UHGV virus genome: UHGV-0175271
Strand: one strand, 5' to 3'
DNA: 20,061 nt
Source of the DNA: a virus
Made by a program: the position numbers and the translations under genes. Shown piece after piece: positions 1-14,786 of this stretch (its first letter is position 1; every line of letters starts with the position of its first letter). Below the pieces are notes generated by a model. It was not told the origin of the DNA. It did no database searches and saw only the letters and a program-made list of their open reading frames with translations.

Positions 1-19
1 GTTCACTTTTTACAACGAA

Positions 20-922
20 TTATGAAAGCTCAAACACCTTGCCTTCCTTGGGTACGACTGAACAGGGATCCTGATGAATGATGACATCTGATCCCGGGAA
101 ACGCCGTAAAATTGCCTGCTCAACCTGTTCAGCCACTAAATGCGCCTGAACGAGCGGCAGATTATCTTCCATTTCCAAATGAATCTGAATAAAGCGGGTC
201 GGCCCTGACTGCCGCGTACGGAGATCGTGAGCACCACTGACGCCCGGCCATGATGTCACGATGTCAAAAATTTCCTGACGTTCTTCATCGGGTAATGCGC
301 GATCCAGTAACGACTGCACGGCATCATAACCCATGCGTAACGCGCTATATAAAATATAGATGCCAATCCCCAAAGCAAACAACGCGTCTGCACGATGCCA
401 GCCGTACCAGGCCAGACCGAGCGCCACGAGAATCGCACCGTTCATCATAACATCAGACTGATAATGAAGCATATCCGCCCGTACTGCCTGGCTTTGCGTC
501 CGCTTCACCACCCAGCGCTGAAACGAGACCAGCACCACAGTACATATCAGGGCGATAATGGTAACCACAACCCCCACGCCGGGTTCGTTCATCGGCGTCG
601 GTGTAATCAGATGCTGGATACCCGTTAAAAATAAAAACAACGCCGAACCGGAAATAAACATGCTTTGCGCCAGCGCAGCCAGTGATTCCGCTTTGCCATG
701 ACCAAAGGTATGTTCATCATCCGCGGGCTGCAGCGAATAGCGCACCACTAACAGGTTAGTGAGCGACGCGGCAATATCCACCAGCGAGTCGACCAGGGCC
801 GCCAGAATACTCACCGACCCGGTATACCACCACGCAAAAATTTTGATCAAAAGTAACAGCGATGCCATCACTGTCGCGGCAATGGCCGCCCGACTGACTA
901 ACCGCCCATAGGATTGATTCAT
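20..922 (-). CDS. fieF: Cation-diffusion-facilitator Fe(II)/Zn(II) efflux transporter FieF (YiiP)
   Basis: 300-codon ORF with multiple hydrophobic TM segments and a cytoplasmic C-terminal domain. The N-terminus [17 protein letters not shown]... and overall sequence match my recollection of E. coli FieF closely but not identically. ATG at 922 has a GGAG Shine-Dalgarno about 8 nt upstream; the track ORF extends to an upstream in-frame ATG at 937 that lacks an RBS. Confidence 0.9.
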
Positions 923-1003
923 AAACACTCCTGCCATTTCATGCCGGTAGTATAACGGATGGTGTAAGACAATCAGTGATTATGACGATGACAATTTACA
1001 GGC

Positions 1004-1030
1004 AAAAAAAACCCCCACGTCATGTGGGGG
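1004..1030 (-). terminator. Rho-independent terminator (minus strand): CCCCCAC-ATGAC-GTGGGGG stem-loop followed by U8
   Basis: Plus strand reads A8 (1004-1011), then 7-bp GC-rich stem 1012-1018 / 1024-1030 with a 5-nt loop. On the minus strand this is hairpin plus an 8-U tract, placed about 80 bp upstream of the fieF start and downstream of the cargo operon. Confidence 0.65.
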
Positions 1031-1124
1031 AAGACAGGGATGGTGTTGTTTTACGACATGTAACATACTGAATAAATTATATTTATATTAATATCTCCGT
1101 CCACAAAACGTCCACATCGACCAT

Positions 1125-1153
1125 AAGCCCCAGAGTCAATTCTGGGGCTTTTT
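1125..1153 (+). terminator. 10-bp stem-loop (AAGCCCCAGA / TCTGGGGCTT, 6-nt loop) with T-tract on the plus strand only
   Basis: Perfect inverted repeat 1125-1134 / 1141-1150 followed on the plus strand by TTTCTC. It sits 7 nt beyond the stop of the minus-strand gene 1160-1870, where the minus-strand reading has no U-tract. Either a 3' stabilising stem for that mRNA or the terminator of an unannotated plus-strand transcript. Confidence 0.4.
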
Positions 1154-1159
1154 CTCAAC

Positions 1160-1870
1160 CTATTTTTTGAATTTATTCTGAAGATACTCGACTAAGTACT
1201 CGAAAAGTTTACTAATTGGTGTTGAGATCTGCGCCAATGTATTATTCTTCTCTTCTGCTTCTTCTTCCCTAAACAACGCCCGCATTAAAGCAATCGCAAG
1301 CGTTAACCCCACCCCAAGAATGAATGCAATGAGAGTTATCATGGGACTAATAGATAACCAGTTTGTCGTTTCCAAAAATTTTTCTATGAGGCTATTACGC
1401 TGCTGGGCTGCTTGAGTACTAAGTTCTCTAGCCGTTTCACGAGCATGATACAAACTCTCAGGGGGCGAAGGTTGAGCCGTGAAAACAAACTCACTAATTG
1501 CTTTGGGTGAAGACTCATCTACAACCCTCACCATTGCCTCTTTCACATCCTGCTTAGTTTTTAGCATATTGACAGTAAGGCATACCGACATGATTGCGCC
1601 AATAAGCAAAAACAGAGCGCTTGCCCCTACAGTAAAACGAAAGAGCCATTTACGCATATTGCGTCTATCTTCATGGTTTTCAGCACGATGACGCACATTC
1701 TCAGTACTTTCAGGTAAATTCGCTAAGGGAAATGACGGGTCTGGCGGCCCGACCACTATAGGTTCGCCAAATTTAATTGATTCTCCACCTTCATTTTTTG
1801 TCTCATTATGAGTTGGTTGAGTGCCTGATGTTGCTGTATTTGGGGAATTGTTAGATGATTCTTTAGACAT
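1160..1870 (-). CDS. Two-TM membrane protein of unknown function (second gene of the cargo operon)
   Basis: 236-aa ORF with ATG start. The N-terminal ~80 aa are hydrophilic and low-complexity (Ser/Thr/Asn/Pro/Glu-rich), followed by a basic patch RRNMRKW and TM1 (FRFTVGASALFLLIGAIMSVCLTV), a ~100-aa predicted periplasmic segment, TM2 (ISPMITLIAFILGVGLTLAIALMRALF) and an acidic/basic C-tail. Strongly AT-rich: hand counts on two 60-nt samples gave about 27% and 40% GC, against about 55% in a tail-gene sample. No family recognised. Confidence 0.6.
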   Translation of the reverse strand: MSKESSNNSPNTATSGTQPTHNETKNEGGESIKFGEPIVVGPPDPSFPLANLPESTENVRHRAENHEDRRNMRKWLFRFTVGASALFLLIGAIMSVCLTVNMLKTKQDVKEAMVRVVDESSPKAISEFVFTAQPSPPESLYHARETARELSTQAAQQRNSLIEKFLETTNWLSISPMITLIAFILGVGLTLAIALMRALFREEEAEEKNNTLAQISTPISKLFEYLVEYLQNKFKK

Positions 1871-1875
1871 AAAAA

Positions 1876-1900
1876 AGCCACCGAATTCAATTAGGTGGCT
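1876..1900 (-). promoter_or_regulatory. Intergenic stem-loop (AGCCACC / GGTGGCT, 11-nt loop) sequestering the downstream gene's Shine-Dalgarno and abutting its ATG
   Basis: 7-bp inverted repeat 1876-1882 / 1894-1900. On the minus strand the 3' arm contains GGTGG, the only SD-like sequence for the ATG at 1870, and is followed by U5-6 immediately before the ATG. It therefore looks like a partial intrinsic terminator or attenuator plus a translational block between the peptidase and membrane-protein genes. Confidence 0.4.
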
Positions 1901-1937
1901 TCATTTTAGTTTGAAAAGCATTCAGTATCTATAACTG

Positions 1938-2423
1938 TTATAGATAACCTAGATTTTTCATGCGCCAGTACATAGCTTCTTCTGATACGTCAAAGCGGCT
2001 AGCTAATGCTGAAACCGCATATACTTTTTCTCTATTGATCAACGTAGCGATCGCATCTTCTGGCATAAGAAGTTCAGCAGCGAAGCGATTAGCGTCTTTT
2101 TCTTCAACATAATTCCCATCATTCCAAGCGGGGTTTGAGTATTCCCTCAACTTCCGCCCGTTACGGGTATGCCCAAGGACATGATGCCCAAGCTCATGAG
2201 CTAGCGTAAAACGAATCCTGCTATGAGGATCTGAAGTGTTATATGAGATTACATAGCGACCTTCAGGTGTAATCTCAGCAAACCCACATTGATTTGAATT
2301 GCTTCCATCAGGAACCAACGGTGTTACTTGAATTCCCATTTTGTGTGCAATCAGGTCTGGTCGCACTGGCAAGCGACCATCCCAATGGGAATTAAGCACA
2401 GCTTTTACTGCGTTAAATTCCAT
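1938..2423 (-). CDS. ImmA/IrrE-family (M78 / DUF955 / COG2856-like) zinc metallopeptidase, stand-alone with no HTH domain
   Basis: 161-aa ORF with ATG start and an AGGGAGA SD 8-12 nt upstream. Contains the family-typical RFTLAHELGHHVLGH (HExxH) zinc motif followed by the conserved E..ANRFAAELLMP segment. AT-rich like its downstream partner. Its stop codon lies inside a 21-bp perfect palindrome (1926-1946). Confidence 0.8.
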   Translation of the reverse strand: MEFNAVKAVLNSHWDGRLPVRPDLIAHKMGIQVTPLVPDGSNSNQCGFAEITPEGRYVISYNTSDPHSRIRFTLAHELGHHVLGHTRNGRKLREYSNPAWNDGNYVEEKDANRFAAELLMPEDAIATLINREKVYAVSALASRFDVSEEAMYWRMKNLGYL

Positions 2424-2673
2424 CGTTCAAGTCTCCCTTGTCATCGGTATGATATTTGTATTAAGCCGAAACAGCTTCCGTAAAACAAAATGTACTACAT
2501 ATTTGTCCAGTAGTAACGATTTTCATGCAAAAAAACATTGACTTTTCCGTAATGAACTGAATTTTAATGATAAATATATTATTCCATTCAGACCGCCGTC
2601 TATATACACCACCCCATCTTAAATGTCAACAAAATTATCTCGTTGCTTTTAAAATTTAAGTCGCCCATCGGGA

Positions 2674-2946
2674 AACCATCACAACCATCACCTCCCTTAA
2701 AAACACAACTTAACCATATGATTATCATGAATAAATATTGTGACGGTAAAACCATCACAAAACGTAACGCAAACCATCACACCCAATAAATTCAGTAAGT
2801 TATAAAACAGAGTTGTGATGATTTAAGACCGTCACACTGTGATGCTGTTGTGATAGTTTTGTGATGGTTTCCAATACGCAAATTTAATTATATATCATAT
2901 AGATATATGCCATTTTTAAATCTTGTGACGTTTGTGATGGTTTTCC
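2674..2946. repeat. Iteron-like array: at least 12 copies of an 8-9 bp motif (TGTGAYGG, or its complement CCRTCACA) in both orientations around AT-rich cores
   Basis: Copies read as AACCATCAC/CCGTCACA on the plus strand at 2674-2682, 2683-2691 (perfect tandem), 2750-2758, 2772-2780, 2829-2836, with a degenerate copy at 2712-2718. Copies read as TGTGAYGN at 2739-2746, 2814-2821, 2838-2845, 2849-2856, 2860-2867, 2924-2930, 2933-2940. GGAAACCATCACAA (2671-2684) is the exact inverse of TTGTGATGGTTTCC (2859-2872). A very AT-rich tract lies at 2873-2920. No ORF of 60 aa or more in the region. Confidence 0.75.
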
Positions 2947-3570
2947 GATAGCCCCCATAACTTTTTGAAAAAATCAGAACTGGTCAGAAATCACCCTGAT
3001 TTGTTGGTGGTTTTGTATATCTATCTGTTAGTGACTTGGACACTGGAGCATGCATGTTAATGCAGGTATGGCGATGGTTCAGGCTGTGCAAAGTATTTCA
3101 GTTGCGCATTTCACTGCCATTCCGTGCCAGAGCACGTCAGTTAAGGCCTGGACACTTTCCCCACTTACGTGATCCCGCAGAGATTGTTCCGACAAAAGTC
3201 ACGTAATCGCTGTTAACCCCGCATGAAACCCGGCACCGGCATTTTTCACCCACAGCCGGTAATCGCACAAAAACTGAAATCCTTGAAATCTGTTTCACAT
3301 ATTTCAGTCGGTGAACTACCGCCAAAGCCCCAGCGCTGGCACAGTCTGGCGATGTGTTTTGTACCCCCAGAAAAACTGAAATCATTCTCAACACGAAAAC
3401 CGCAGGCGGGTGCGGTGTAGCGCCGTTTTCGTCACTTCCGCCGTTATTTCGTCGTGGCAGGCTGCATCAGCGCCTTGCTGTGCTTTTAAAGCTAATTAAG
3501 TTGGGATGGAGCGGGTGTAGATACTGGCGGCGCTCAGAATGCGTCTGGTGAGGTCTGGTGGGTGCGATAA

Positions 3571-3589
3571 AGCCCGCATGACGCGGGCT
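3571..3589 (-). terminator. Stem-loop (AGCCCGC-ATGAC-GCGGGCT) just downstream of the last tail-operon gene; weak U-tract
   Basis: 7-bp stem with 5-nt loop lying 11 nt past the stop of the 567-aa gene. The minus-strand downstream sequence is UUUAUCG, so it is at best a weak intrinsic terminator. Confidence 0.35.
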
Positions 3590-3599
3590 GGTTGAGAAA

Positions 3600-5303
3600 T
3601 CAGGCGATAATGTTCTGATACTTGCTCCGAGTCTGCCCGGCTTTCGTCGCCGTCTGTGTGAACGCGGCTGCATTAGTTGGAGTCCCAACTGTGGGGTGCG
3701 AATGGTTCGCACATTGCTGCGCCAGCTCTGCCAGTAAATCAATGGTGTCCAGCATCATGGTCAGGGCGTTGATACTCTCGCTGCCAATATGGACTGTTGC
3801 CCCCATGACCTGCTGACCGCCAGCGGCCACTGATTTACGCAGTGCGGCAATCTTCTCTGTCAGGCTTTCGCCAACCTCCACGGCTACAGCACCGCCCACT
3901 TTAGTGGACTGCTGTCCTGCTATGTCCGTTTCTTCGTTTCCTTCAATACTGGCCAGCCTGTTACCTTTCACCGCCTGGCTATAATCACCGGCGCTTACCT
4001 GCTGGATGGCTCCGGCCAGCAGTGTGGCGGTTCCCAGTACCGTGGTTTTGTCCGTGGCTTTCACCGTGGTTTCACGGCTGACCAGTTCGCGCTGTTCCGT
4101 ATCGGCTTTTACGGTTCGCGCCATCGATGTTTCACTGATGGTTTGATCGGTCTGCCTTACCCAGTCTCCAGCCTGAGTCACCCTCTGGGATACTTCTTCC
4201 CTCTGCTGCTGCAATTGCTCACCGGGTTTAACGTCCGGCAGGCTGGTACCATCCGGCAGCGTCTGCCTGATAAAGGGTTTATCCGGTCTGCCTCCCGTGA
4301 ATGCAACCTCAACCAGCGTCCCTTCTGGCGGAAACTGAAACATACCTGAATCATTCCCGGCCATTGGCACCGGCAGCGGCACCGCTGAGTAAACAGGCGT
4401 CTGATTGTCCGGGTTTCCGTCTGCGTCAAGCAGCTGAACGTCCACGGCATAACGTGGGCGGAATGGATCGGCAAAATTACCACTTTTCACGGGTTCAGTA
4501 TGTGCCACCACTCTGGCCATCTTTGGCAGATGAAGCCCGGAAGCCAGTTCCGGATAATGGCTCTCAATCTGTCGTTGTGTCGGTGTTTTCTGGAGGGGGC
4601 TGCCTGTGACGCGGTTCCGGGGTGTCCAGGTGATAGTCATCGTGTCATTTGTAAGATGGACTTTGGTGACCCGTTCACCGTTAAGCTCAACGCCGGGTCG
4701 TATCGTCTGGATCACCGGTAACGTTATGGTATTCCCGCCAGCAGCCCCCTGGCTGAACTCTGCCGGCACTTCGACCGGACGACCGGTAAACAGTGACTTT
4801 TCAGCACCGCCGACGTAAAGCGAACCATCAGGCAACTGGTACCAGATGTAATCCTGGATACTGAATGCCCTGCCCAGGTTGTTCAGCAACTGATAGCCGG
4901 TACCGTTATGGGTGAAATGGGGGATCGGAGTATCGCTGTAAGACACATCGGGTACACTGACACCGATCCCGCTGTTTTCCGTCAGCCAGCCGGCCACATC
5001 CCTTAATGTCGGGTGCTGAAATGAACATGGCCACATCCTTTCAAAAACACCGGCCAGCTCACGAATGAACAGACGCTGATAACCGTTTTCAGCTGGTTGT
5101 GAACGTTCAACATAACCGGTAAACCAGCGCAAAAGCAGGTCGGTATATCCCACATCCAGCCGCACCAGTTTCCCGGTATAATCAGTGGTTGTCTCTGCGG
5201 TAATAAATCCCCGACCGCAACTGTTAAGCTCCAGTACCAGGCTGGCATCAGCCAGATGCACTTCATCCGTTGAAAGGTAAAGACGTTTAACTGGTTTCAT
5301 CAT
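3600..5303 (-). CDS. Phage tail/baseplate protein, unassigned (candidate hub/gpD-like component by elimination)
   Basis: 567-aa ORF at typical phage GC. Its ATG overlaps the upstream gene's stop (TAATG), so it is translated as part of the tail operon. No motif recognised; the assignment rests only on hub, spike and tube-initiator functions being otherwise missing from the module. Confidence 0.5.
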   Translation of the reverse strand: MMKPVKRLYLSTDEVHLADASLVLELNSCGRGFITAETTTDYTGKLVRLDVGYTDLLLRWFTGYVERSQPAENGYQRLFIRELAGVFERMWPCSFQHPTLRDVAGWLTENSGIGVSVPDVSYSDTPIPHFTHNGTGYQLLNNLGRAFSIQDYIWYQLPDGSLYVGGAEKSLFTGRPVEVPAEFSQGAAGGNTITLPVIQTIRPGVELNGERVTKVHLTNDTMTITWTPRNRVTGSPLQKTPTQRQIESHYPELASGLHLPKMARVVAHTEPVKSGNFADPFRPRYAVDVQLLDADGNPDNQTPVYSAVPLPVPMAGNDSGMFQFPPEGTLVEVAFTGGRPDKPFIRQTLPDGTSLPDVKPGEQLQQQREEVSQRVTQAGDWVRQTDQTISETSMARTVKADTEQRELVSRETTVKATDKTTVLGTATLLAGAIQQVSAGDYSQAVKGNRLASIEGNEETDIAGQQSTKVGGAVAVEVGESLTEKIAALRKSVAAGGQQVMGATVHIGSESINALTMMLDTIDLLAELAQQCANHSHPTVGTPTNAAAFTQTATKAGQTRSKYQNIIA

Positions 5304-5848
5304 TAACCCAAAGCATCATTGACGGGCTTCAGCACCTTGCGTTCAAACCACGTCAGTTTTTCTTCATCTTCTCCGGCCGTCTGACCACCGGATTGTTCCG
5401 CGCTGCCGGTTGTCTGTTTTTTCGCAGTGGTTTTGCCGGTTGATCTGGCTTCCCGCTTTTCCTGCACGCTAATATGTTCCGCCAGCGTGAAAGTCACCAT
5501 CCAGGACATTTTCCCGTCCTGCTGTGGTGCATCCAGCATTCCGCTGAATGTGGCCTCACGAAAATTCACCGCTCTGGCAACCTCATGCGCAACACGGTAT
5601 GTCTGTCGTTTCCCGCTACTATCGATAGCGCTGGCCAGTTCAAAGATACGCTTCAGAATCTCCGGATTTTTGAAAGGAATTTCGCCACTGATACGCAGCT
5701 CCTTTCCCTTTGCCCCCTGCTCAGATTTTGACGTTGCGCTGGTCTGCCCTGACTGGTCTTTATCCTGAAACTGCTGTGAGACTGTCACGCGCATATTCTT
5801 CAGCTGTATGGCCTCGCCGTTAAGCGCCAGTGTCGGGATCGAAGTCAT
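5303..5848 (-). CDS. Phage tail-associated protein, unassigned
   Basis: 181-aa ORF whose ATG overlaps the last 9 codons of the upstream gene, with an AAAGGGAA SD. Hydrophilic, with a Ser/Thr/Gln/Lys-rich linker. Function unknown. Confidence 0.5.
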   Translation of the reverse strand: MTSIPTLALNGEAIQLKNMRVTVSQQFQDKDQSGQTSATSKSEQGAKGKELRISGEIPFKNPEILKRIFELASAIDSSGKRQTYRVAHEVARAVNFREATFSGMLDAPQQDGKMSWMVTFTLAEHISVQEKREARSTGKTTAKKQTTGSAEQSGGQTAGEDEEKLTWFERKVLKPVNDALG

Positions 5849-6545
5849 GAATCATTCCCTTTATTCCATCAAGATTATCGCCAACCAGCATCATGGCAGC
5901 GGTGTAAACGGCAGACTGCTGCGGAATGTCCTTCACCAGTTCCAGTAACATGGTGCCGGTGTCTCCGCTGGCAGTAAAAACCCACGCTCTGGCACTCTTC
6001 CCCTGTAAATCGTTCAGGCCGTTGGCCACATCACTGATAAGTTGGTCACGCAGCTGCGTGAACTCGCCCAGCTGTTTTTTCAGCCCTTCGATATCAAACC
6101 CGGCACCCGCCGCCTTTTGTGCCTGGCTGATTGCCGCAGCAGATAAAGCTGTCCTGCTGGTTGGTACAGACAGCGGAATGGACGCAGGTAACGCTGCGGC
6201 GGTTTTCGCAGGGATCTGCATCTTTTCAATAGCCAGCGTTGCGGCGGATTGCGCCAGCCGTTTGACCTGCGTGAATGCCGGGGCGGGGAAAATCCCGACC
6301 AGGTTATTCAGGCTGGCCATAAAGTTTTCCTGCGTCTGTCCGGTGACCATCATAATCACCACATCCGCATTCCCCCCTGTTCCGGCCAGGCGTTCAGCAA
6401 GATAGCGAACGGCATTAACCGGGCTGAGATATGCTCCGTTCGCTGTCTGCTGCCCCAGCCCATAAATCCATGGATGCGCAGGGACGATAGAACAATTCAG
6501 CGCAGCAACAGAATCCGTGAAGGCCAGACGTGCTTCACGCCACAT
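5820..6545 (-). CDS. Phage tail-associated protein, unassigned
   Basis: ATG at 6545 preceded by GGAGG, overlapping the stop of the tail fiber assembly gene (so I prefer it to the track start at 6581). 241 aa, Ala-rich. Function unknown. Confidence 0.5.
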   Translation of the reverse strand: MWREARLAFTDSVAALNCSIVPAHPWIYGLGQQTANGAYLSPVNAVRYLAERLAGTGGNADVVIMMVTGQTQENFMASLNNLVGIFPAPAFTQVKRLAQSAATLAIEKMQIPAKTAAALPASIPLSVPTSRTALSAAAISQAQKAAGAGFDIEGLKKQLGEFTQLRDQLISDVANGLNDLQGKSARAWVFTASGDTGTMLLELVKDIPQQSAVYTAAMMLVGDNLDGIKGMIHDFDPDTGA

Positions 6546-7122
6546 TTCCAGGCACCTCCGGCCACACAATTTCCGGCGCATCTTCCGGTTGAATACGGTT
6601 CAGTAAAACGCGGTATTTTTTCCATGCGGTAAGCAGCAGTGCTTCTTCTTCGGTCGCCATGTCTAAATCTACGGCATCCTGCAATGTGGCAATGGCATCA
6701 TTGGCCTGTTTAAGCAGTCTTTTCTTTTCTGCATCTGCCTCGCTGACTAATGCAGTTCGCATGGCCTCCGCATCATCCACCCACGCCTTTCCATTCCATT
6801 TTTGCCAGGCATTAGCCGGGGCTGACGTGGTTGTCCCTTCCGGGTAAGCACCTGGCTCGGTGATCACCAGTTCATTACCGTTTTCCGTGTCAAACACCAC
6901 CTCACCACGATGATCCTCACGGGAAATCCATCTTTGCTTCTCTGAATCAAAAATTGCCACAAACCCCGCTTTGATTGCCGGTGGCTTTATTGTGGTGCAG
7001 TTTGCTGGCAGTCCGGTATGCGCAGGAATAAAAGCGTCACCGGAACCAATAAATTCATTCGTATCGGAACGCAGGTTATAAACAATAACTGTTTGATCGG
7101 TTTCACTCATTTTAAAAGTCAT
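6535..7122 (-). CDS. Tail fiber assembly protein (Tfa / gpG-like chaperone)
   Basis: 195-aa ORF immediately after the fiber gene (TAATG overlap). The N-terminal region (YNL...F..PAHTGLPAN.T..KPP..K.G....FD...Q.W....DHRG..V.D..NG) is typical of phage Tfa proteins. Confidence 0.75.
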   Translation of the reverse strand: MTFKMSETDQTVIVYNLRSDTNEFIGSGDAFIPAHTGLPANCTTIKPPAIKAGFVAIFDSEKQRWISREDHRGEVVFDTENGNELVITEPGAYPEGTTTSAPANAWQKWNGKAWVDDAEAMRTALVSEADAEKKRLLKQANDAIATLQDAVDLDMATEEEALLLTAWKKYRVLLNRIQPEDAPEIVWPEVPGNVA

Positions 7123-8696
7123 TATGCGAGTCTCACTATGTAGTTAAATGCAATGTTCTTAACGGTCGTTTCTGCGTTACCCGACGCGGCGACGGTAATG
7201 GTGTGATTGTGTGCGCCAATGGCTACGGTATGAGAGTGAGCGCCAATACCTACGGTGTGATTGTGTGCGCCAATGCCTACTGTATGTGCGTGGTTTCCTG
7301 CTGAACTGGTATTTACGGTATATGCAGTACCACTTCCGCCTGCTGATCTGGCTATTCCTGAACCATCAGTGCCTCGCGTGGTAAAACCGTGTGCGTGCGC
7401 CCCTGTCGTATTTGTCGTTTTTGTGCCGTGGTCAAACGTACTCGCCGTTTTAGTACCGTAATCAAATGAGGATGTTGATTTCGTTCCCAAATCAGTACTG
7501 GATGCACTCGCAGTGTGGGCATGGGATTTATTGCCATCATCTTCAAAGGACAATACTGCGCGGCCATCTGGTTTCCCTTTGATTGTCTGGCGGCGCATAT
7601 CAGGAAGAACTCCCGATGGGTATGCAATAGCCAGTTGCGGGCAAGCCACTGGATCAAACGCCTGTCCTTGCATGATTGCGTGACGCGCCGGTGGAATATC
7701 TCTCGGCCAGGGAAGTGGCACCCCAACAGGTACAACATCACTAATGCTTAAAACCGCCAGTTCACCCAGTTCAAGATTTTTTCTGGCTTTAGCCTTGTCA
7801 TTGATATCGGCAAGGTTTGCATCCTTACGCAAAAAATCGCTGCTGGCCTGCTGTTCTCCCAGGCTACCTTTTGGCCGTAAATCCGTGATGTTGCCATCCA
7901 CATCAATGCTGGCCACAGCAAACACATAATGCTGAACCCCGTTCTGAACGTAGTCAGAAAGATTTGCAGCCACCGTGATTTTGTTCTGCACATTCCAGAC
8001 ACTGGTCAGTGTCCCTGTCCAGCACACATCCAGCCAGACTTTTACCGGCTTTGTCGTCACCGTAATATTCTGATTCGCAGCCAGTGACGCACGAAGTCCA
8101 GCCACATACCCCGTGCCTTTCGTGACAAAAAACTGATTGCCGGCCTTCCCGACCAGATAACCGCTACCAAAAAACGCCGCCGCGCCATAAATATCAATAT
8201 TTTCCAGGCGCTGGCGTTCATCCATTCCTGCCATACGCGCGGTGAAATCAATCTGCCAGGTTTCTGCCGGCGTATTGATGCCGGTTTCAGTCTGTGCGCC
8301 GTTATATTCCATCAGGAAAGAACGGGTCAGGACGTTCCCCTGCTGCCCTTCTGCAGTTTTCAGCTTCTGCTGAACAGGCGCATGAACAATCATCGCCAGC
8401 GTGCCGCTGGCCTTGTTAATCAGGCCGATCCAGTTAAACGAAAAATCGCCCACATCCGCGCCCAGCACAACGGAATGCACCACGGCATTCTCATTCACCA
8501 CACCTTTACGGCTGACCGCCTGCCGGTGAACAATCTGCGCGGCCGGTGGCAGTGTCTCGCTGCGATCAACGGGTTGTTCGGGGTTCAGCCCCGGTACGTT
8601 CGCAAAAACAAACTCGTCCAGCAGAACAGGTTCGCCAGTGGCACCCTGCAGCGCCTTCCACTGTTCAAACGCCAGTGTGATAGCTGTCTGTGACAT
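7122..8696 (-). CDS. Tail fiber protein (mosaic: P2 gpH-like N-terminal collar domain, His-box repeat C-terminal tip)
   Basis: 524-aa ORF with a GGGAGA SD. The N-terminal ~150 aa resemble the P2 gpH tail-collar domain ([19 protein letters not shown] region). The C-terminus carries four tandem HxHTVxIGA nonamers and ends ...[11 protein letters not shown], as in Stf/gp37-type receptor-binding tips. Confidence 0.85.
7185..7292. repeat. 4 x 27-bp imperfect tandem repeat inside the tail fiber gene (encodes the HxHTVxIGA units)
   Basis: Units at 7185-7211, 7212-7238, 7239-7265 and 7266-7292 translate on the minus strand to [27 protein letters not shown] and HAHTVGIGA. Confidence 0.85.
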
Positions 8697-8705
8697 AAAA
8701 TCTCC

Positions 8706-9293
8706 CTATAAACCCGCGCTGAACGTCGCGCTGTCTGTTTCCGTACTGTTTAACGCTGCCGGATACGCCACATATTCCCCCTGATCCCATCCCGCCCGGA
8801 TAGCCAGGCTTTCAGACGTGATCACCTCAAACTGATAACGGCGGCATGTTCGCCCGTACTGCCGGATTATCTGGATCAGCAACTGCGTGTTGTCCGCAAT
8901 CTGGCTGTCTGTCACGCGAACCAGTATCACGTCCCAGTCGATCCCCGGCTGGCGTTCCTGCAGCTCAACGTATCCAATTCCCAGCCGTTCAAAGATGTTG
9001 ATAAACCCCTCAACGGAACCGGCATCCCGCGCATTGACAAAGGCATATGCCACGCGCTTACGGAACAATGCCAGCGGTTCACCGTCAAAGCGGGTGATAT
9101 CCCGGTCATACGCCAGCAGGTTCAGTAATGCCGGCGTACACGTCAGCGGATCGAACTGATTCACTGGCCACGTTACCCAGCCGTAAACCTCAGCCCAGAA
9201 CCGCCGCGCCGTTTTCAGCAACTTGGCCGGCTCCCCTTTGTTCATCCAGGAAGGAAGCATCATCCCGGCCAGCTTTTTCAGGAACTCACTCAT
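8706..9293 (-). CDS. Baseplate protein (P2 gpI / Mu gp48-like position)
   Basis: ATG at 9293 overlaps the stop of the J-like gene by 8 nt; the track start at 9299 is a TTG. 195 aa, between baseplate J and the tail fiber as in P2/Mu. Assignment by synteny, not direct similarity. Confidence 0.55.
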   Translation of the reverse strand: MSEFLKKLAGMMLPSWMNKGEPAKLLKTARRFWAEVYGWVTWPVNQFDPLTCTPALLNLLAYDRDITRFDGEPLALFRKRVAYAFVNARDAGSVEGFINIFERLGIGYVELQERQPGIDWDVILVRVTDSQIADNTQLLIQIIRQYGRTCRRYQFEVITSESLAIRAGWDQGEYVAYPAALNSTETDSATFSAGL

Positions 9294-10470
9294 TTTCAAT
9301 ACCCACCGTTAACGATTTCAGGCGTGGCACACTCAGTTCGCTGGTGATGTCGCCCAGCGAAAAAGACAGTGATTCCGTCTGCGCAAATGCCTTATGGATC
9401 TCCCGCCCCAGTTGGGAAAAGGAAAACCGCGAATATGGCCACGTCTTCCTGACGTCATAATCAGCATTCTCACGAAAGGCACAGCGGATCATGTTTTCCA
9501 CCCCGTCTTTCAGGGTTTTCCTGTCCTCAACGCTGAAATTGGCCAGATTTTTGACATAAACCGTAACGGACAGATCATGAAGCGTTTCCGGCATGGGATA
9601 GCACTGCATATCATCACCGTGGCCGTGATGCCCCTGCGTGTTGATATAATCATTGACGGCATCCACGAACGGCGAAGAGGCCACCCCGCTGTCCAGCAAC
9701 AGATACGCGTTGGCGGTACCGGGTCCCCTCGGCGCTTCATGCTCAAAGAAAATCCGGTCAATACTCAGCCCCGCAACGCCGGCAATCATCGACCGGTAAA
9801 CGGCGTCAGTATGGTAATTCCCTACCAGATTGAACTGATTGCGGCAGCGTTCACGCAGTTCGTCGTCGCTTTCCTCATCCGCGCCCGGTACAGTCAGCCA
9901 GTTTTCTTCGCTGGCCACGTGGCTGATACCGTCAACGGCCACCGGCAGAATGCGGTAATATCCCGGCGCAAGGTTATATGCGCCCCCGGTGCCAGTGGCT
10001 TTCACCGGCAGTAATGCGCTGGCCGCACCGGAAGCGATCACCACATCCTCAGTGGTGGCCAGCTCGTACACACGGCCGTTAATGCGCTCTGTCTGGATAA
10101 CCGTCCCGGCTTTCACCGTCACCACACCTTTTGCATCTTCTTTGAAGAAGCGGATCACTCCCTGTGCAGCACTCGCCGGTTTTGCCGTGACGTTCACCGC
10201 CCAGGCCAGCAGACGCAACATGCTCCCGCTGGCCGTGGCCACAAACATGTTGGCCAGCACAGTGAACACCAGAACATCTTTCAGCCACATCACTGGCGCG
10301 GTCACAATGGCCGTAATCAACCGCCAGAACGGCGACATGCGTGACGTATTGGTGATGATGCCCTCCTCATCCGCAATCGCATTAAAGCGATCGCGAACCT
10401 CAGATTCCGTCACCGGCATCCCGCTGGCTTTCACCACTTCTTCAAAATCTACCTGGGGCTTTTCCGTCAT
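9286..10470 (-). CDS. Baseplate J-like protein (P2 gpJ / Mu gp47 family)
   Basis: ATG at 10470 forms an ATGA overlap with the upstream gene's stop, so I prefer it to the track start at 10524. 394 aa with a J-family-like acidic ...ESDDELRERCRNQF... segment, positioned between gp25-like and gpI-like genes. Confidence 0.7.
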   Translation of the reverse strand: MTEKPQVDFEEVVKASGMPVTESEVRDRFNAIADEEGIITNTSRMSPFWRLITAIVTAPVMWLKDVLVFTVLANMFVATASGSMLRLLAWAVNVTAKPASAAQGVIRFFKEDAKGVVTVKAGTVIQTERINGRVYELATTEDVVIASGAASALLPVKATGTGGAYNLAPGYYRILPVAVDGISHVASEENWLTVPGADEESDDELRERCRNQFNLVGNYHTDAVYRSMIAGVAGLSIDRIFFEHEAPRGPGTANAYLLLDSGVASSPFVDAVNDYINTQGHHGHGDDMQCYPMPETLHDLSVTVYVKNLANFSVEDRKTLKDGVENMIRCAFRENADYDVRKTWPYSRFSFSQLGREIHKAFAQTESLSFSLGDITSELSVPRLKSLTVGIENE

Positions 10471-10796
10471 AAGTCCACCTGATATGAAAGCGTGCCAAAA
10501 TCGTATGTGCTCGCGGTCACCCACAACCGTTTCTGGCTTTCTTCACTGATTTCCACCGTTCCCGGCACAATGCGCTCATCGTTTTCAACCAGTAATTCCA
10601 GTTGTGTAAAAATATCTGCCCTCAGTGTCGGACTGCGTTCCGCAATTAATTGCGTGGCTAATCCGCTCTCAATAATGGCGTGAATAATGTCCTGCCCGAT
10701 ACTTTTTCGGTTATTACATAACTCAGGCTCATTACCGGCATTTAATGAGAAGTCACCGCTCTCAATAAGCAGGTCAATATAAAGGGCTTCACTCAT
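10467..10796 (-). CDS. Baseplate wedge protein, gp25 / GPW-like
   Basis: 109-aa ORF with a 4-nt overlap to the tape measure stop. Size and C-terminal pattern (DERIVPGTVEISEES...TASTYDFGTLSYQV) fit the small gp25/W-like wedge subunit. Confidence 0.55.
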   Translation of the reverse strand: MSEALYIDLLIESGDFSLNAGNEPELCNNRKSIGQDIIHAIIESGLATQLIAERSPTLRADIFTQLELLVENDERIVPGTVEISEESQKRLWVTASTYDFGTLSYQVDL

Positions 10797-12760
10797 GCAC
10801 CCAGCTCCTGATATTCCATTAACTTACCGGGCGACATCATTTCAGTTGGATAAATATTCACAGTATCAATTCTTCGGCTGTTATCCGTTACTGACTTAGA
10901 ATTACTGCTTATCGTTTTACTGATACCGCCTTTATCAACGCCTTTTAATTCACTGCCAGTAGAAAGGGTATTTGTTGTCAGTGCCGGTTGAGATTCGTTC
11001 GCCAGTGAAATATCGACGCCCGGAATTTTATTGAGCTTTCCGACAATCCAGTTCCACGACTTCAGGAACCCGCCTTTGATGGTCTGCCAGACGTTATCAA
11101 AAAGGGAGACAATCCCGCTGGCCATCCCGCTTAATGCCTGTGACGGGGAAAACCCGGTCAGCAGCGCAATAAAGCTGTTCCAGCCATCCGTGATCCATTG
11201 CCACGCAGCGGAGAACACGCCTGCGAGCCATTCCACCACACCAGCCACGGCGGTAAACGCCGCCGTATTCATCACCGCCGCTTTCACATCATCCCAGTGT
11301 TTAATCAGCAGATAACACCCGGCTGCCAGCAGAGCAATCGCCCCGATAACCAGCAGAACCGGCCAGCTCATCAGGTTGATGCCAATACCGGCCATAATCG
11401 CCGCCATGCGCACGGCCAGCAGCGTACCCCGCAGGAATTTCAGCGTCAGGTTCCACGCTACGACAGCCTTTGAGGCAACCCAGACTGTGGCCGCGTAAAT
11501 CTTCGTGACCAGCGTCAGGGCGCTCCAGAGTCCCTTCAGACCCACCAGGATAAATTTTGAGACGCCCATGACAATATTTGTCACCGCGCCCGCTGCCGCC
11601 ACGCCAAAGAGCGCAAGCTGCACGTAACCAGTCACCCGCGCAATGTTGGGAAACATCTGCATCCAGCGGCCGAACGTCTGCCCCATATCGGCCAGGCGGT
11701 TCAGTACCGGGTACAGAACCGGGATCAACGTCAGTCCGATCACCGTCTGAATGGCTTTGAGGATTTGTACAAAGCGATCCCACGGCTTGACCAGCTTCCC
11801 GGCCATCTCCTGTGTACGTTTCAGCCCGTCAGAGCCGCCCAGTTCGGTGATATTACGCTGCAGTAACGCCACATTGCCGTACAGGTGCTTTATCACCGCC
11901 GAACTGTCACCAAAGGCTGCATCCAGCTCCGCCTGGGCTTTCAGGTTCCCTTCCAGACTTTTGCCGTATTTGCCCTGCAGCTTGATCAGCATTTCAGGCA
12001 TGGACAGCATTTTGCCGGTGGAGTCAGTGAAGGACAGCCCCAGCTTTTTAGCTCCCTCCATCGCGCCGGTCATGAAACCTTCGTAAGCGCTGCTGGCTTC
12101 TGTCCCCAGCGTACGGTTGAGCTGTCCCAGCACCGCCAGCTGTTCATCCAGTCCGACGCCGTAGTTGGTACCAACACCCCGCGCCCCTTCCATCAGGTCT
12201 TTGATAGTCCCCATTTCAGTACCGAAGACCTTGCGCATATACACCATTTTCCCCGCCAGCTGCTCGGCGAACTGGACTTTACCCAGCCGCGCCGCATCGG
12301 CGGAAAAGTTACCGTACATCTGCCCCATGAACTCCGCCGTGTCGGCGGATGTGGATTTCAGGGCAAATGCCAGCGTATTAGCGACCTTCGTCACTTTCGG
12401 CAGCTCGCTGGCGGTAAGGCCGGCAATGGAAGCGTTAATGTTCTCTGTGGATTTGACGAACTCCACCGCGCTGGCACCCCAGGTCATGCTGAACCGGAGC
12501 GCATCACGCTGTACGGTCTTTAATGCCTGATTATCAATCCCTTTTGCGGCGGCATCATTCAGCGCGTCGTACATTTCGATAGCCGGCGATAACGCGCCTT
12601 TTATGGCCATCCCCGTACCGGCCAGCCCCAGCACGCCGCCGCCAATCTGCGAAAAGGCCGCTTTTGATTTTTCCGCAAAGCCGGTGACGCTGCCCTGCGC
12701 CTGTTTTAACGGGCGCGTCAGCTTATCAATCAGGCTTAATGTAAAATCTAACTGTTTCAT
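10793..12760 (-). CDS. Tail tape measure protein
   Basis: 655-aa ORF, Ala/Gly/Leu-rich with long helical segments and a central hydrophobic block, directly downstream of the frameshifting chaperone gene. Confidence 0.85.
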   Translation of the reverse strand: MKQLDFTLSLIDKLTRPLKQAQGSVTGFAEKSKAAFSQIGGGVLGLAGTGMAIKGALSPAIEMYDALNDAAAKGIDNQALKTVQRDALRFSMTWGASAVEFVKSTENINASIAGLTASELPKVTKVANTLAFALKSTSADTAEFMGQMYGNFSADAARLGKVQFAEQLAGKMVYMRKVFGTEMGTIKDLMEGARGVGTNYGVGLDEQLAVLGQLNRTLGTEASSAYEGFMTGAMEGAKKLGLSFTDSTGKMLSMPEMLIKLQGKYGKSLEGNLKAQAELDAAFGDSSAVIKHLYGNVALLQRNITELGGSDGLKRTQEMAGKLVKPWDRFVQILKAIQTVIGLTLIPVLYPVLNRLADMGQTFGRWMQMFPNIARVTGYVQLALFGVAAAGAVTNIVMGVSKFILVGLKGLWSALTLVTKIYAATVWVASKAVVAWNLTLKFLRGTLLAVRMAAIMAGIGINLMSWPVLLVIGAIALLAAGCYLLIKHWDDVKAAVMNTAAFTAVAGVVEWLAGVFSAAWQWITDGWNSFIALLTGFSPSQALSGMASGIVSLFDNVWQTIKGGFLKSWNWIVGKLNKIPGVDISLANESQPALTTNTLSTGSELKGVDKGGISKTISSNSKSVTDNSRRIDTVNIYPTEMMSPGKLMEYQELGA

Positions 12761-13205
12761 TCCGTGCCTTTAAATGCAGTGCTGATTCCGTTAGCAACCG
12801 CTATTCGCATATTTTCCCAGTGGCGATTATCCAGCCAGATAGCAGCGGATATATCATCCACGGAATCCTGACCGTGTGGTAAATAATGGCGACGCAAAAT
12901 TAAATACTGTTCGAGTCCGTTCTGTTCAATTGCCCGGACTCGTTTTGTCAGTTTTTTACTTCAATTTCCAGCTCTGGCGCATAAAGCTCATTCACTTTTC
13001 CGGCAAGCTGGAGCGCTGCACCCGGACGTTTCAGAATGTCTTCCAGCGCTTCTTTACTTTCCGTTGCCACAATGCGTACAAGATAATTGTGCGCGGGTGC
13101 CACTTTATTATCCATCGCCATTTCGTTGATGAACTTATTATAAGCGGTCTGATTCGGTTCAAAGGTAATTTCTTTTTTGCATACAACCAGATTAATTTTT
13201 TCCAT
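12757..13205 (-). CDS. Tail assembly chaperone -1 frameshift fusion product (E+E' / G-T type)
   Basis: From the slippery heptamer the -1 frame stays open for 64 codons with no stop (I read every codon) and ends at a TGA at 12759-12757 that overlaps the tape measure ATG at 12760-12758. Confidence 0.65.
12948..13205 (-). CDS. Tail assembly chaperone, short zero-frame product
   Basis: 85-aa acidic ORF immediately upstream of the tape measure gene, ending ...GAA GTA AAA AAC TGA. Confidence 0.7.
   Translation of the reverse strand: MEKINLVVCKKEITFEPNQTAYNKFINEMAMDNKVAPAHNYLVRIVATESKEALEDILKRPGAALQLAGKVNELYAPELEIEVKN
12951..12957 (-). promoter_or_regulatory. Programmed -1 ribosomal frameshift slippery heptamer A_AAA_AAC
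   Basis: Minus-strand AAAAAAC spans the last two sense codons (AAA AAC) of the chaperone ORF, directly before its TGA stop. Confidence 0.65.
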
Positions 13206-13491
13206 AAATAACTTTCTCTCTTAAATTAATTTCATCAACAAGCGCGTTATGCCGTGCAGCACACTGCCCGTATAACTCCAGATAAAGTGTCAGTAATTCC
13301 GCCGCGTCTTTTCCCTGCGTTCCACTCAGGCGCGGCAGCAGCGTGGCGCATTTAGTTTTCAGGTTTTCCTGATAACGTACGTTCGGTACTGGTGACGGCG
13401 TCGTTGTACATGCGGACAAAGTCATCAGACAGACACTTATTGGTAAATACCGGCTTAACCACTTCCGTGCGGATTTCACGCGGTGGCGCAT
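13192..13491 (-). CDS. o-spanin (outer-membrane lipoprotein, Rz1-like), overlapped architecture
   Basis: 99-aa ORF that starts in a different frame inside the 3' part of the i-spanin gene and extends past it. Basic n-region, hydrophobic core and lipobox L-S-A-C (MTLSAC), followed by a Pro/Thr-rich segment. Confidence 0.65.
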   Translation of the reverse strand: MRHRVKSARKWLSRYLPISVCLMTLSACTTTPSPVPNVRYQENLKTKCATLLPRLSGTQGKDAAELLTLYLELYGQCAARHNALVDEINLREKVIYGKN

Positions 13492-13684
13492 TTTTCAGTG
13501 CCTCCAGTTTGTCTTCCAGCCGGCGACCGGATGAACCGGCAATTTCAGCCAGTTGTTCCCCGGTCGCGGTGACCGCTTTTGAGACAGTCAGATCAACACT
13601 GTCCCGCTGCCAGCCGGCCGTTTTCCAGCCGGCTATAAATGCCAGAGCAAGGGTGAATAACCAGCCTGACACGACGCGATCCAT
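13352..13684 (-). CDS. i-spanin (Rz-like, N-terminal TM anchor)
   Basis: 110-aa ORF whose ATG overlaps the endolysin stop (TGATG). N-terminal TM segment (WLFTLALAFIAGW) followed by a charged, helical periplasmic domain. Confidence 0.65.
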   Translation of the reverse strand: MDRVVSGWLFTLALAFIAGWKTAGWQRDSVDLTVSKAVTATGEQLAEIAGSSGRRLEDKLEALKNAPPREIRTEVVKPVFTNKCLSDDFVRMYNDAVTSTERTLSGKPEN

Positions 13685-14025
13685 CAGCGCACCCCGTTAT
13701 GTTCCAGGCTGAAATGATTACCATCAGGGCGGGATTTGAAGCGACCGCCCCATGAACCACCCAGCGATTCCCAGTATTCGCCCAGCGGCAGATACGCCGC
13801 GCTGTTGGTCTGATACTGGCCATTAATGAACAGATTGAAGTCCACGGCCAGACGCTGCGTGTGCAGACTATTGGAAATGCCGCTGCCTTTTTTCGCGTTC
13901 ATTGCAGCCTGTTCCGGGGTACGGTAAGCCTCACCAAACGTCAGTCGGTAGCCATGTTCTTCAGCCCACTGGATCAGATTTGCCACCATAACGGTAAAGA
14001 GTTGCTGTTTTTCGCTCAGAGTCAT
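13684..14025 (-). CDS. Endolysin, peptidase M15 family (L-alanyl-D-glutamate endopeptidase type)
   Basis: 113-aa ORF with the zinc-ligand pattern H-x6-D (SLHTQRLAVD) and a downstream H (DGNHF) typical of small M15 phage endolysins. Its start overlaps the holin stop. Confidence 0.7.
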   Translation of the reverse strand: MTLSEKQQLFTVMVANLIQWAEEHGYRLTFGEAYRTPEQAAMNAKKGSGISNSLHTQRLAVDFNLFINGQYQTNSAAYLPLGEYWESLGGSWGGRFKSRPDGNHFSLEHNGVR

Positions 14026-14318
14026 TTCCCTGTCCCTTTATCAAAAATCCCTGTAAAACCCCGCTTACGCAGCCAGGCTTCCACCGCATTCTGCCCCAGA
14101 ATACCCAGCGCGGAGCCAAATCCGGCCAGCGCGAGCGGATGAATATCCGGGACAAAGTACAGCGCCACCCCGGCAATCAGTGACAGCCCGCTGCCCACAA
14201 TGACACGCCCCGCCACCAGACGAAGGGTGATCGGTTCATCACTGTTAAGCAATTTACCCAGCGCAATCAGCGCCCCCATGACTGCCAGTGCAATGAACCC
14301 CTTTTCGTACTCCTGCAT
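14022..14318 (-). CDS. Holin
   Basis: 98-aa ORF with three predicted TM segments and a charged C-terminus (RKRGFTGIFDKGTGK), immediately upstream of and overlapping the endolysin gene. Confidence 0.65.
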   Translation of the reverse strand: MQEYEKGFIALAVMGALIALGKLLNSDEPITLRLVAGRVIVGSGLSLIAGVALYFVPDIHPLALAGFGSALGILGQNAVEAWLRKRGFTGIFDKGTGK

Positions 14319-14330
14319 CCCTGCTGCCTC

Positions 14331-14786
14331 TTATCCAATCAGGTTTTCCGTGGCTTCCGCTTCCAGATACGGCACACCGTTGATGTTGACGAACTTCGGA
14401 CTTGTCACGAAGTATTTGATTTTATGCGTGGACACACTGCCACCCTTCGGATCACCATCCAGAACGCTGTTGAGCTGCAGCTTGTTACCAAAGGTTTCCA
14501 CCTTCATTTCTTCTCTGCCGGCTTTGGCGTAAAAAAGGAAGTCAACCGGAGGAATGCCACGCCATGACCCCGCTGAACGGGCTTTGGCTGTCAGAACCTG
14601 CAGCACTTTGGAACTGACTTCAATTTCACCCTCGGCGGCAACATCACCGTCCACATACCCGTCAGGGACACCGCGCGTCTGTGCCGCCGCGCTGTTATCG
14701 GTGATATCCAGCGAAATTTTTTCAATGTGGATCAGGTCGCCGTCCAGATAGATGTCAAAGGACATCCCTGAAATACGTTTGGTCAT
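14331..14786 (-). CDS. Tail tube protein (FII-like position)
   Basis: 151-aa ORF with an ATGA overlap to the sheath gene stop. Assigned from the sheath, tube, chaperone, tape measure order; no direct similarity to P2 FII. Confidence 0.6.
   Translation of the reverse strand: MTKRISGMSFDIYLDGDLIHIEKISLDITDNSAAAQTRGVPDGYVDGDVAAEGEIEVSSKVLQVLTAKARSAGSWRGIPPVDFLFYAKAGREEMKVETFGNKLQLNSVLDGDPKGGSVSTHKIKYFVTSPKFVNINGVPYLEAEATENLIG

Follow-up and report, generated by a model that had tools for sequence, protein, structure and literature searches.

A repeat array that accompanies a primase-helicase is a probable replication origin of an HP1/P2-like prophage

Replication of P4 requires two sites, ori and crr. 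Both are annotated in the P4 record as octamer iterons in both orientations, with crr between attP and the 3' end of the alpha gene. Recognition of the ori and crr iterons by the alpha protein is an established mechanism (Ziegelin and Lanka 1995, cited in PMC6092414). In PICI and SaPI origins, sets of iterons flank AT-rich putative melting regions and the initiator helicase is self-loading (PMC6092414). The replication of the widespread P2-like temperate phages that include phiCTX has so far been inferred from a 'DNA primase' annotation alone. In the searchable literature, which excludes the original phiCTX papers (Hayashi 1993; Nakayama 1999), we found no origin assigned to phiCTX-type phages and no evidence of binding or initiation for their primase family; those two papers may already suggest an origin. 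Here, we describe an array of short repeats that we consider, judging from sequence comparison and with a probability of roughly 0.75, to be the vegetative replication origin of a prophage, its repeats being iterons of the P4 alpha/PICI type. Iteron origins with self-loading initiators are a known kind, and what is new is the primase family and the phage clade.

The window (the whole stretch of DNA analyzed, 20,061 nucleotides of virus genome UHGV-0175271) is the right-hand part of an HP1/P2-like (Evevirus-like) prophage integrated adjoining fieF. Its features follow the order fieF, att, arm repeats, cargo, array, ACTGAAA block, cos and tail. The chromosomal flank, fieF (20-937), shares only about 81% identity with its E. 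coli counterpart, which makes the host a different enterobacterium. The prophage/host junction is a terminator-like hairpin (1012-1030) that contains the att core. Beside the core, two direct copies of the integrase arm-type repeat CGTCCACA (1098-1116, plus strand) mark the prophage end. The closest phage, Escherichia phage ESSI2_ev239 (Evevirus; ev239 below), has five copies of CGTCCACA around attP, just after int. The match of some E. coli strains (e.g., F11) to window positions 8-1131 passes fieF and ends at about 1126-1131; the inclusion of att-core and P'-arm sequence suggests that these strains harbor a relative, or a remnant, in the same place. Next comes a variable moron cargo (1160-2423, minus strand) that encodes a 161-aa M78 peptidase and then a 236-aa protein. 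The peptidase matches the PADLOC capP (E = 7e-25) and RmrA models, and no family match was found for the 236-aa protein; together they may form a defense or regulatory module. The tail operon reads leftward from the far end of the window to a terminator at 3571-3589.

A preliminary description of this DNA had reported at least 12 copies of one motif within about 270 bp, a density beyond chance. Exact TGTGAYGG occurs eight times in the 20-kb window, seven of them within 2676-2940, and 100 shuffles gave a mean of 1.78 copies per whole window, none of them reaching eight. When one mismatch is allowed, TGTGAYGGT has 12 sites in 2675-2941 (267 bp) against about 0.1 expected, so the statement holds; the remainder of the window has about 0.45 such sites per kb. 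Five of the sites are on the minus strand (2675, 2684, 2751, 2773 and 2828) and seven on the plus strand (2739, 2814, 2838, 2849, 2860, 2924 and 2933). They form a roughly dyad-symmetric, AT-rich, origin-like cassette of about 290 bp (2664-2954). Its ends are inverted: CCCATCGGGAAA and then an iteron pair form the left end, and a second iteron pair and then TTTTCCGATAGCCC the right. The array is thus where it was first placed, and the unit is slightly larger than first described. The cassette has a GC content of 35%, compared with 52.5% for the window, and its three spacers are at 24%, 28% and 20%.

From the left, the terminal tandem iteron pair (TGTGATGGT, GGTGATGGT; 2675-2692, minus strand) has a 9-bp spacing and coincides with the perfect tandem of two AACCATCAC units that had been noted before. 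AT-rich spacer 1 (2693-2738, 24% GC) is a candidate unwinding region and contains a single weak IHF-like site (12/13 match to the IHF consensus, 2711-2723). The first inner group (2739-2781) consists of a convergent pair (plus-strand 2739, minus-strand 2751) and a minus-strand site at 2773. The convergent pair is present as reported, but its spacer has five nucleotides, not four: TGTGACGG-N5-CCATCACA ends at 2759 (2739-2759) rather than 2758. The central spacer (2782-2813, 28% GC) is mostly conserved in sequence among orthologues, and both GC skew and AT skew switch sign there, at the center of the cassette. The second inner group (2814-2868) has sites at 2814 (plus), 2828 (minus), and 2838, 2849 and 2860 (all plus), the last three at 11-bp spacing. 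AT-rich spacer 2 (2869-2923, 20% GC) contains ATATAGATAT at 2897-2906, a core common to the cassettes of the relatives L110 and L462, and is the best candidate unwinding element. The right terminal tandem pair (TGTGACGTT, TGTGATGGT; 2924-2941, plus strand) again has a 9-bp spacing and is inverted relative to the left pair. Two other elements of the preliminary description were found as given: the divergent pair GTCACA-c-TGTGAT (2831-2843) and the 14-nt exact inverted pair (2671-2684 and 2859-2872), whose starts are 188 nt apart. Across five distinct orthologous copies, the iterons are kept, the Y position toggles freely between C and T, and the spacers drift. The motif cluster is unique within the 29-kb genome of ev239.

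We found no DnaA box (TTWTNCACA, at most one mismatch) within 2664-2954. This rejects a DnaA-dependent origin, and, like the presence of just one weak IHF-like site, it also counts against the origin reading. The cassette has no GATC clusters or 13-mer-like repeats. A promoter and terminator scan gave nothing above background, and an Rfam scan of 900-3700 gave sub-threshold chance matches only. Matches to the 15-mer CACCAACAAATCAGG were mostly due to chance and were in unrelated viral contigs.

Homology to ev239 and to E. coli prophages starts at 2655, which places the array in the phage backbone and the cargo outside it. The segment belongs to a phage and occurs in a virion genome; it is not the conserved chromosomal intergenic sequence that the preliminary description had allowed for. 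In place of the M78/236-aa cargo, ev239 and the E. coli prophages have an acyltransferase on the opposite strand. This bears on the proposal that the array is an operator for a transcription factor, whose target would be the cargo operon, 250 bp away, or else a phage promoter. Helix-turn-helix proteins commonly bind half-sites of the TGTGA type, and in the window the array is upstream of the M78-peptidase cargo, at the distance previously given (251-523 bp from the peptidase start codon at 2423). However, the acyltransferase gene of the relatives converges on the array, the conserved unit starts at 2655 and leaves the cargo promoter region outside, and the promoter scan stayed at background. 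In addition, the array is retained despite free divergence of the regulators C, Cox and Ogr. Relatives with the array have a different cargo in the opposite orientation, which excludes an operator for the cargo; an operator array of any kind is very improbable.

That the array is on the attP side of the phage map also raises the question of accessory sites for site-specific recombination, either integrase arms, as had been suggested, or Cox/Apl-type excisionase boxes. The array word and the arm word are close: TGTGACGG and TGTGGACG(G) differ by a single inserted base. However, the arm word is a separate one (CGTCCACA, 1098-1116) whose true repeats flank the att core, and the array is about 1.6 kb from that core with cargo genes between. 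The array is kept in phages with integrases that are about 50% identical and with other att sites (raiA/pheA). The cox-C switch region of ev239 lacks any cluster of the motif, and Cox is diverged or absent in array-bearing phages. The distance of the array from the core, the existence of a distinct arm word and the ease with which Int and Cox are exchanged exclude the arm and Cox readings, and we give recombination sites in general almost no weight.

About 460 bp from the array is the 19-mer CTACACCGCACCCGCCTGC (3402-3420, minus strand), which 67 of 69 relatives have downstream of the tail operon. The linear ev239 record is interrupted inside this 19-mer, and together these observations indicate that it is probably cos. 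P4-like satellites that lack the tail gene also carry it. If the 19-mer is cos, the genome map is HP1-like, with cos between the tail genes and attP. The ev239 record (L003, NC_049392.1) has odd ends: positions 29125-29203 are Nextera adapter and poly-A, and about 110 nt at its start (1-115) are unmatched in the window or in the other relatives compared. They look like assembly artifacts at the physical ends of the genome. The interval from the array to the probable cos holds four ACTGAAA(A/T) repeats (3096-3381), with both orientations represented. These repeats are kept in primase-type siblings, gpA-type siblings and satellites. They may be sites for the terminase small subunit (cosB-like) or a late-promoter element.

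The cassette is at most 0.5 kb from cos in at least five independent lineages, which counts against the origin reading and permits a link to packaging. As a packaging accessory (cosB-like), the array would be bound by the small terminase subunit and/or IHF and so direct terminase to the nearby cos. The distance of about 460 bp, the homologous arrays near cos in phiCTX, Smp131, a Halomonas phage and L110, and the IHF sites annotated in the phiCTX array are all consistent with such a role. Against it, gpA-type siblings have no array yet carry the same cos 19-mer and ACTGAAA repeats, and the portals of array-bearing phages are as low as about 48% identical. Moreover, the cassettes of three relatives (L458, L462 and L465) are 3' of the primase gene, with no cos 19-mer within about 1 kb of flank. 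Given the cos-sharing siblings that lack the array, the variable head modules and the cassettes beside primase genes, a packaging role is most unlikely.

The source of the window, an ENA metagenome scaffold that is 100% identical to it over 11.4 kb (L439), ends in the last 115 aa of a primase-helicase, and both a 99.4% identical prophage (L438) and ev239 encode the full 885-aa protein. This scaffold was located by its exact match to the capsid protein; in a scan of genome contigs with the primase, the nearest matches were about 92% identical. The early region of L438 consists of int, cox, a gene for a 111-aa protein, an exonuclease gene, the gene for the 885-aa Toprim protein, and ogr. The primase-helicase belongs to the phiCTX orf37 family and has Toprim and DUF5906 domains. 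Its layout is an N-terminal Cys-rich region, the Toprim primase, the DUF5906 P-loop helicase, and a C-terminal helical and winged-helix-like region. The C-terminal part of about 130 aa has stand-alone homologues in L055 and L056. The preliminary description had found no rep gene adjacent to the array. This is correct on the linear prophage map, where the array and the primase gene are at opposite prophage ends. However, in the circular phage (ev239) the primase-helicase gene is about 4.6 kb from the array, across cox, C, int and attP.

Comparison of relatives links the array to this replicase. The last tail gene is present in many prophages and the array in some only. E. coli siblings of the gpA type, with a 186-type early region and a gpA 'replication endonuclease', have no array. 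They nevertheless keep the cos block and a last tail protein that is 94-96% identical. The absence of the array where the replicase is gpA, although tail and cos are the same, links the array to the type of replicase. The 21-mer TGTGAYGGTAAAACCRTCACA from the array occurs in 18 IMG/VR contigs, and the primase gene is also on 11 of these, among them all contigs of 25 kb or more. Two further contigs are fragments of genomes whose primase gene is on a separate contig. Across array-bearing phages, the primase is 86-100% identical, compared with about 50% for Int, about 43% for C, 52-99% for Ogr and 48-100% for the portal, and Cox is about 40-46% identical or undetectable. Among mosaic relatives, the array thus appears to follow the primase only, and Int, the repressor, Cox, Ogr, the head and the cargo may differ. 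The primase is also the sole early protein with homologues in phiCTX, Smp131 and the Halomonas phage, and all three have homologous arrays. However, gp31 (111 aa, 63-100% identity) likewise co-occurs with the array in the enterobacterial group, which counts against the origin reading.

In complete E. coli genomes, the array is present in 19/19 primase-positive prophages, and three genomes (BY63, BY68 and I3) have the array only. BY63 (L427, NZ_CP090570.1, 22143-24168) is an IS1-deleted remnant: an IS1 event removed int through the tape-measure gene of a raiA prophage, and tail genes, cos, array and cargo are retained. The BY68 record has the same length and coordinates as BY63. In two contigs of 14-16 kb (L013 and L014), the primase gene, portal gene, cos and array are within about 10 kb and most structural genes are absent; these are deleted prophages or mis-bounded contigs. 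The association of primase and array is not universal, which counts against the origin reading. In a group whose primases are 61% identical, the array is missing past cos (L083, 5701-6929) and from the sequence parts examined, and none was found in RSY1. In this group, which includes L083 and L464 (IMGVR_UViG_2713896824_000001), L083 has cos and the ACTGAAA block, followed by no iterons.

The preliminary description had also named a plasmid centromere of the ParR type. This is rejected, as neither the annotated ev239 genome nor the E. coli prophage has par genes. A plasmid search found only a truncated relic of about 220 bp, on two Salmonella IncF plasmids, without the primase gene. Both plasmids are conjugative; the relic (L426, CP054717.1, 8001-8218) corresponds to the left ~220 bp of the array at 73% identity and adjoins phage-holin-like genes.

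Other members of the primase family have the same cassette with other iteron words. The flanks common to the family are C(T/A)TCGGRAAA and a tandem pair on one side and a tandem pair, TTTTCCGA and CCCCCAT on the other, with AT-rich spacers between. In four cases the cassette is directly 3' of the primase stop codon: L458 (ten copies of GGTCACA, primase 57% identical), L462 (nine of GGTTACA, 55%), L465 (nine of CCTTACA, 52%) and the L043 group (five of GATCGTGCA, 47%). In others it is between attP and cos. These are phiCTX (about 16 GGTAAT/ATTACC, primase 41% identical), Smp131 (AGGTAAC), the Halomonas phage (GGTAAC/T, with a flank, CATCGGGAAA, identical to that of the window), and L110 and L351 (11 copies of GGTTACA). 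Searches for the L110 and L351 replicase with satellite primases and primase profiles did not have their contigs among the matches. We tie these two to the primase family because L462 has the same iteron word beside a 55%-identical primase. In all, there are at least six iteron words, which track the primase lineage while other genes vary freely. The PICI arrangement, with the origin directly 3' of the initiator gene, is absent from the window and is found in L458, L462, L465 and L043.

At the array position of one relative, L122 (6300-6370), there are instead about eight tandem GGGACTCC(T) units, followed by an ORF (6420-7349). Judged from the DNA reading alone, this ORF is possibly a reverse transcriptase and hence a different cargo.

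P4-like satellites (L320, IMGVR_UViG_2833601699_000004, 1-14503; and L384-L419) carry the cos block of the phage. They encode a P2-family capsid homologue, Ash, a DUF927 primase, Ogr/Delta, a retron-type RT cargo and an integrase. Their primase, with Zn-ribbon, Toprim and DUF927 domains, is their own gene and distinct from that of the phage. Directly 3' of it are iterons with the word GGTAACA, GTGTAAC or GTACTACATGTA, which varies with primase identity.

We tentatively propose, and hold it to be a reasonable though far from settled idea, that primase-type Peduoviridae (the phiCTX clade) use a portable origin cassette of which the array is one allele. The chassis would be fixed: inverted terminal pairs flanked by C(T/A)TCGGRAAA, a ATATAGATAT-type spacer and a CCCCCAT flank. 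The 7-9-bp word would be rewritten often together with the C-terminal region of the primase, and the whole would have moved between the position 3' of the primase gene and that between attP and cos. If this is true, satellites that share cos could interact with replication of the helper.

An element with inverted ends of about 20 bp and subterminal repeats, at two different map positions in related phages, also resembles a non-autonomous transposon or MITE-like relic, and transposon subterminal repeats had been among the earlier suggestions. However, each of the 22 array-positive E. coli genomes has exactly one copy, no transposase is associated with the cassette, and it is always within phages of one replication type. 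The single copy per genome in particular makes a MITE a scarcely credible explanation.

We modeled the C-terminal region of the primase with AlphaFold from a 70-sequence alignment and compared the model by Foldseek. The nearest structures were SaPI Rep and SCCmec Cch. These matches are modest (E = 0.057) and lie amid helical-bundle noise, which counts against the origin reading. Searches of the PDB with the primase sequence and with a C-terminal profile gave nothing significant, including for the P4 alpha origin-binding domain.

Of the options offered by the preliminary description, an iteron replication origin is the one backed by evidence: the anatomy of the cassette, the exclusive association of the array with this primase family, iteron words that differ between primase lineages, and a modest resemblance in fold of the C-terminal region. 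We infer that the primase binds and melts the array and initiates there. The C-terminal region of the 885-aa primase-helicase would bind the 12 TGTGAYGGT sites, and the inverted terminal pairs and inner clusters would wrap or bend the ~290-bp cassette, perhaps assisted by IHF. The next step would be melting of one or both spacers with 20-24% GC (2869-2923 and 2693-2738). The primase-helicase would load itself as helicase and then prime, and theta replication would begin without DnaA or a separate loader.

Binding of the primase to the array could also serve replication in another way. The array may be a crr-like enhancer or copy-control element, with initiation elsewhere, or with the array handcuffing and limiting replication. 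P4 needs both ori and crr, crr adjoins attP like the array does, and the evidence ties the array to the primase rather than to an initiation site. However, the 29-kb ev239 genome has no second motif cluster, the cassette contains its own spacers of 20-24% GC, and relatives have a single cassette 3' of the primase gene. A crr-like role is thus unlikely, and we favor the array as the origin itself.

If the origin reading is true, it provides an origin and an initiator-origin pairing for widespread P2-like temperate phages, including phiCTX, Smp131, Evevirus and many enterobacterial prophages. The main interest is that one conserved chassis comes with many rewritten iteron words and in two alternative map positions. 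The swaps of specificity that occur naturally on it would be a ready system in which to study iteron reading by a winged-helix-like initiator domain, and the same swaps could be used for building orthogonal phage-derived replicons. For annotation, the reading accounts for a conspicuous non-coding block by the moron cargo and advises caution against labels such as att arm, operator or transposon end.

Among known systems, P2 and 186 belong to the same virus family, and sibling phages have tail, head and cos modules in common. The mechanism of P2 and 186 is entirely different, with a nick site inside gene A and rolling-circle replication, and the gpA-type siblings are those without the array. 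In phiCTX (NC_003278), the 'region containing R3 repeats' with its two IHF sites is the homologous element. Like the array, it is about 290 bp long with inverted ends and sites in both orientations, and is between attP and cos. It has another iteron word and no cargo between attP and the array, and the record states no function for it.

The likeness to P4 lies in 8-9-bp iterons in both orientations within a region of about 300 bp, in the proximity to attP that the array shares with crr, and in a single multifunctional primase-helicase with a C-terminal origin-recognition region, which is putative here. In contrast to P4, the primase here is of the DUF5906 type, has 885 aa and forms a separate family, and the iteron word is different. 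There is one cluster instead of ori and crr, and it is 4.6 kb from the primase gene. With PICI and SaPI origins, the array shares iterons flanking AT-rich DNA, and the predicted fold of the primase C-terminal region appears nearest to SaPI Rep and SCCmec Cch. Relatives of this phage also have the cassette directly 3' of the primase gene, as in those elements. PICIs and SaPIs are satellites, whereas the phage here is a complete myophage of the helper type, from the P2/HP1 group. Its cassette is shifted to the cos-proximal side of attP, and its primase and helicase are fused, with a Toprim domain.
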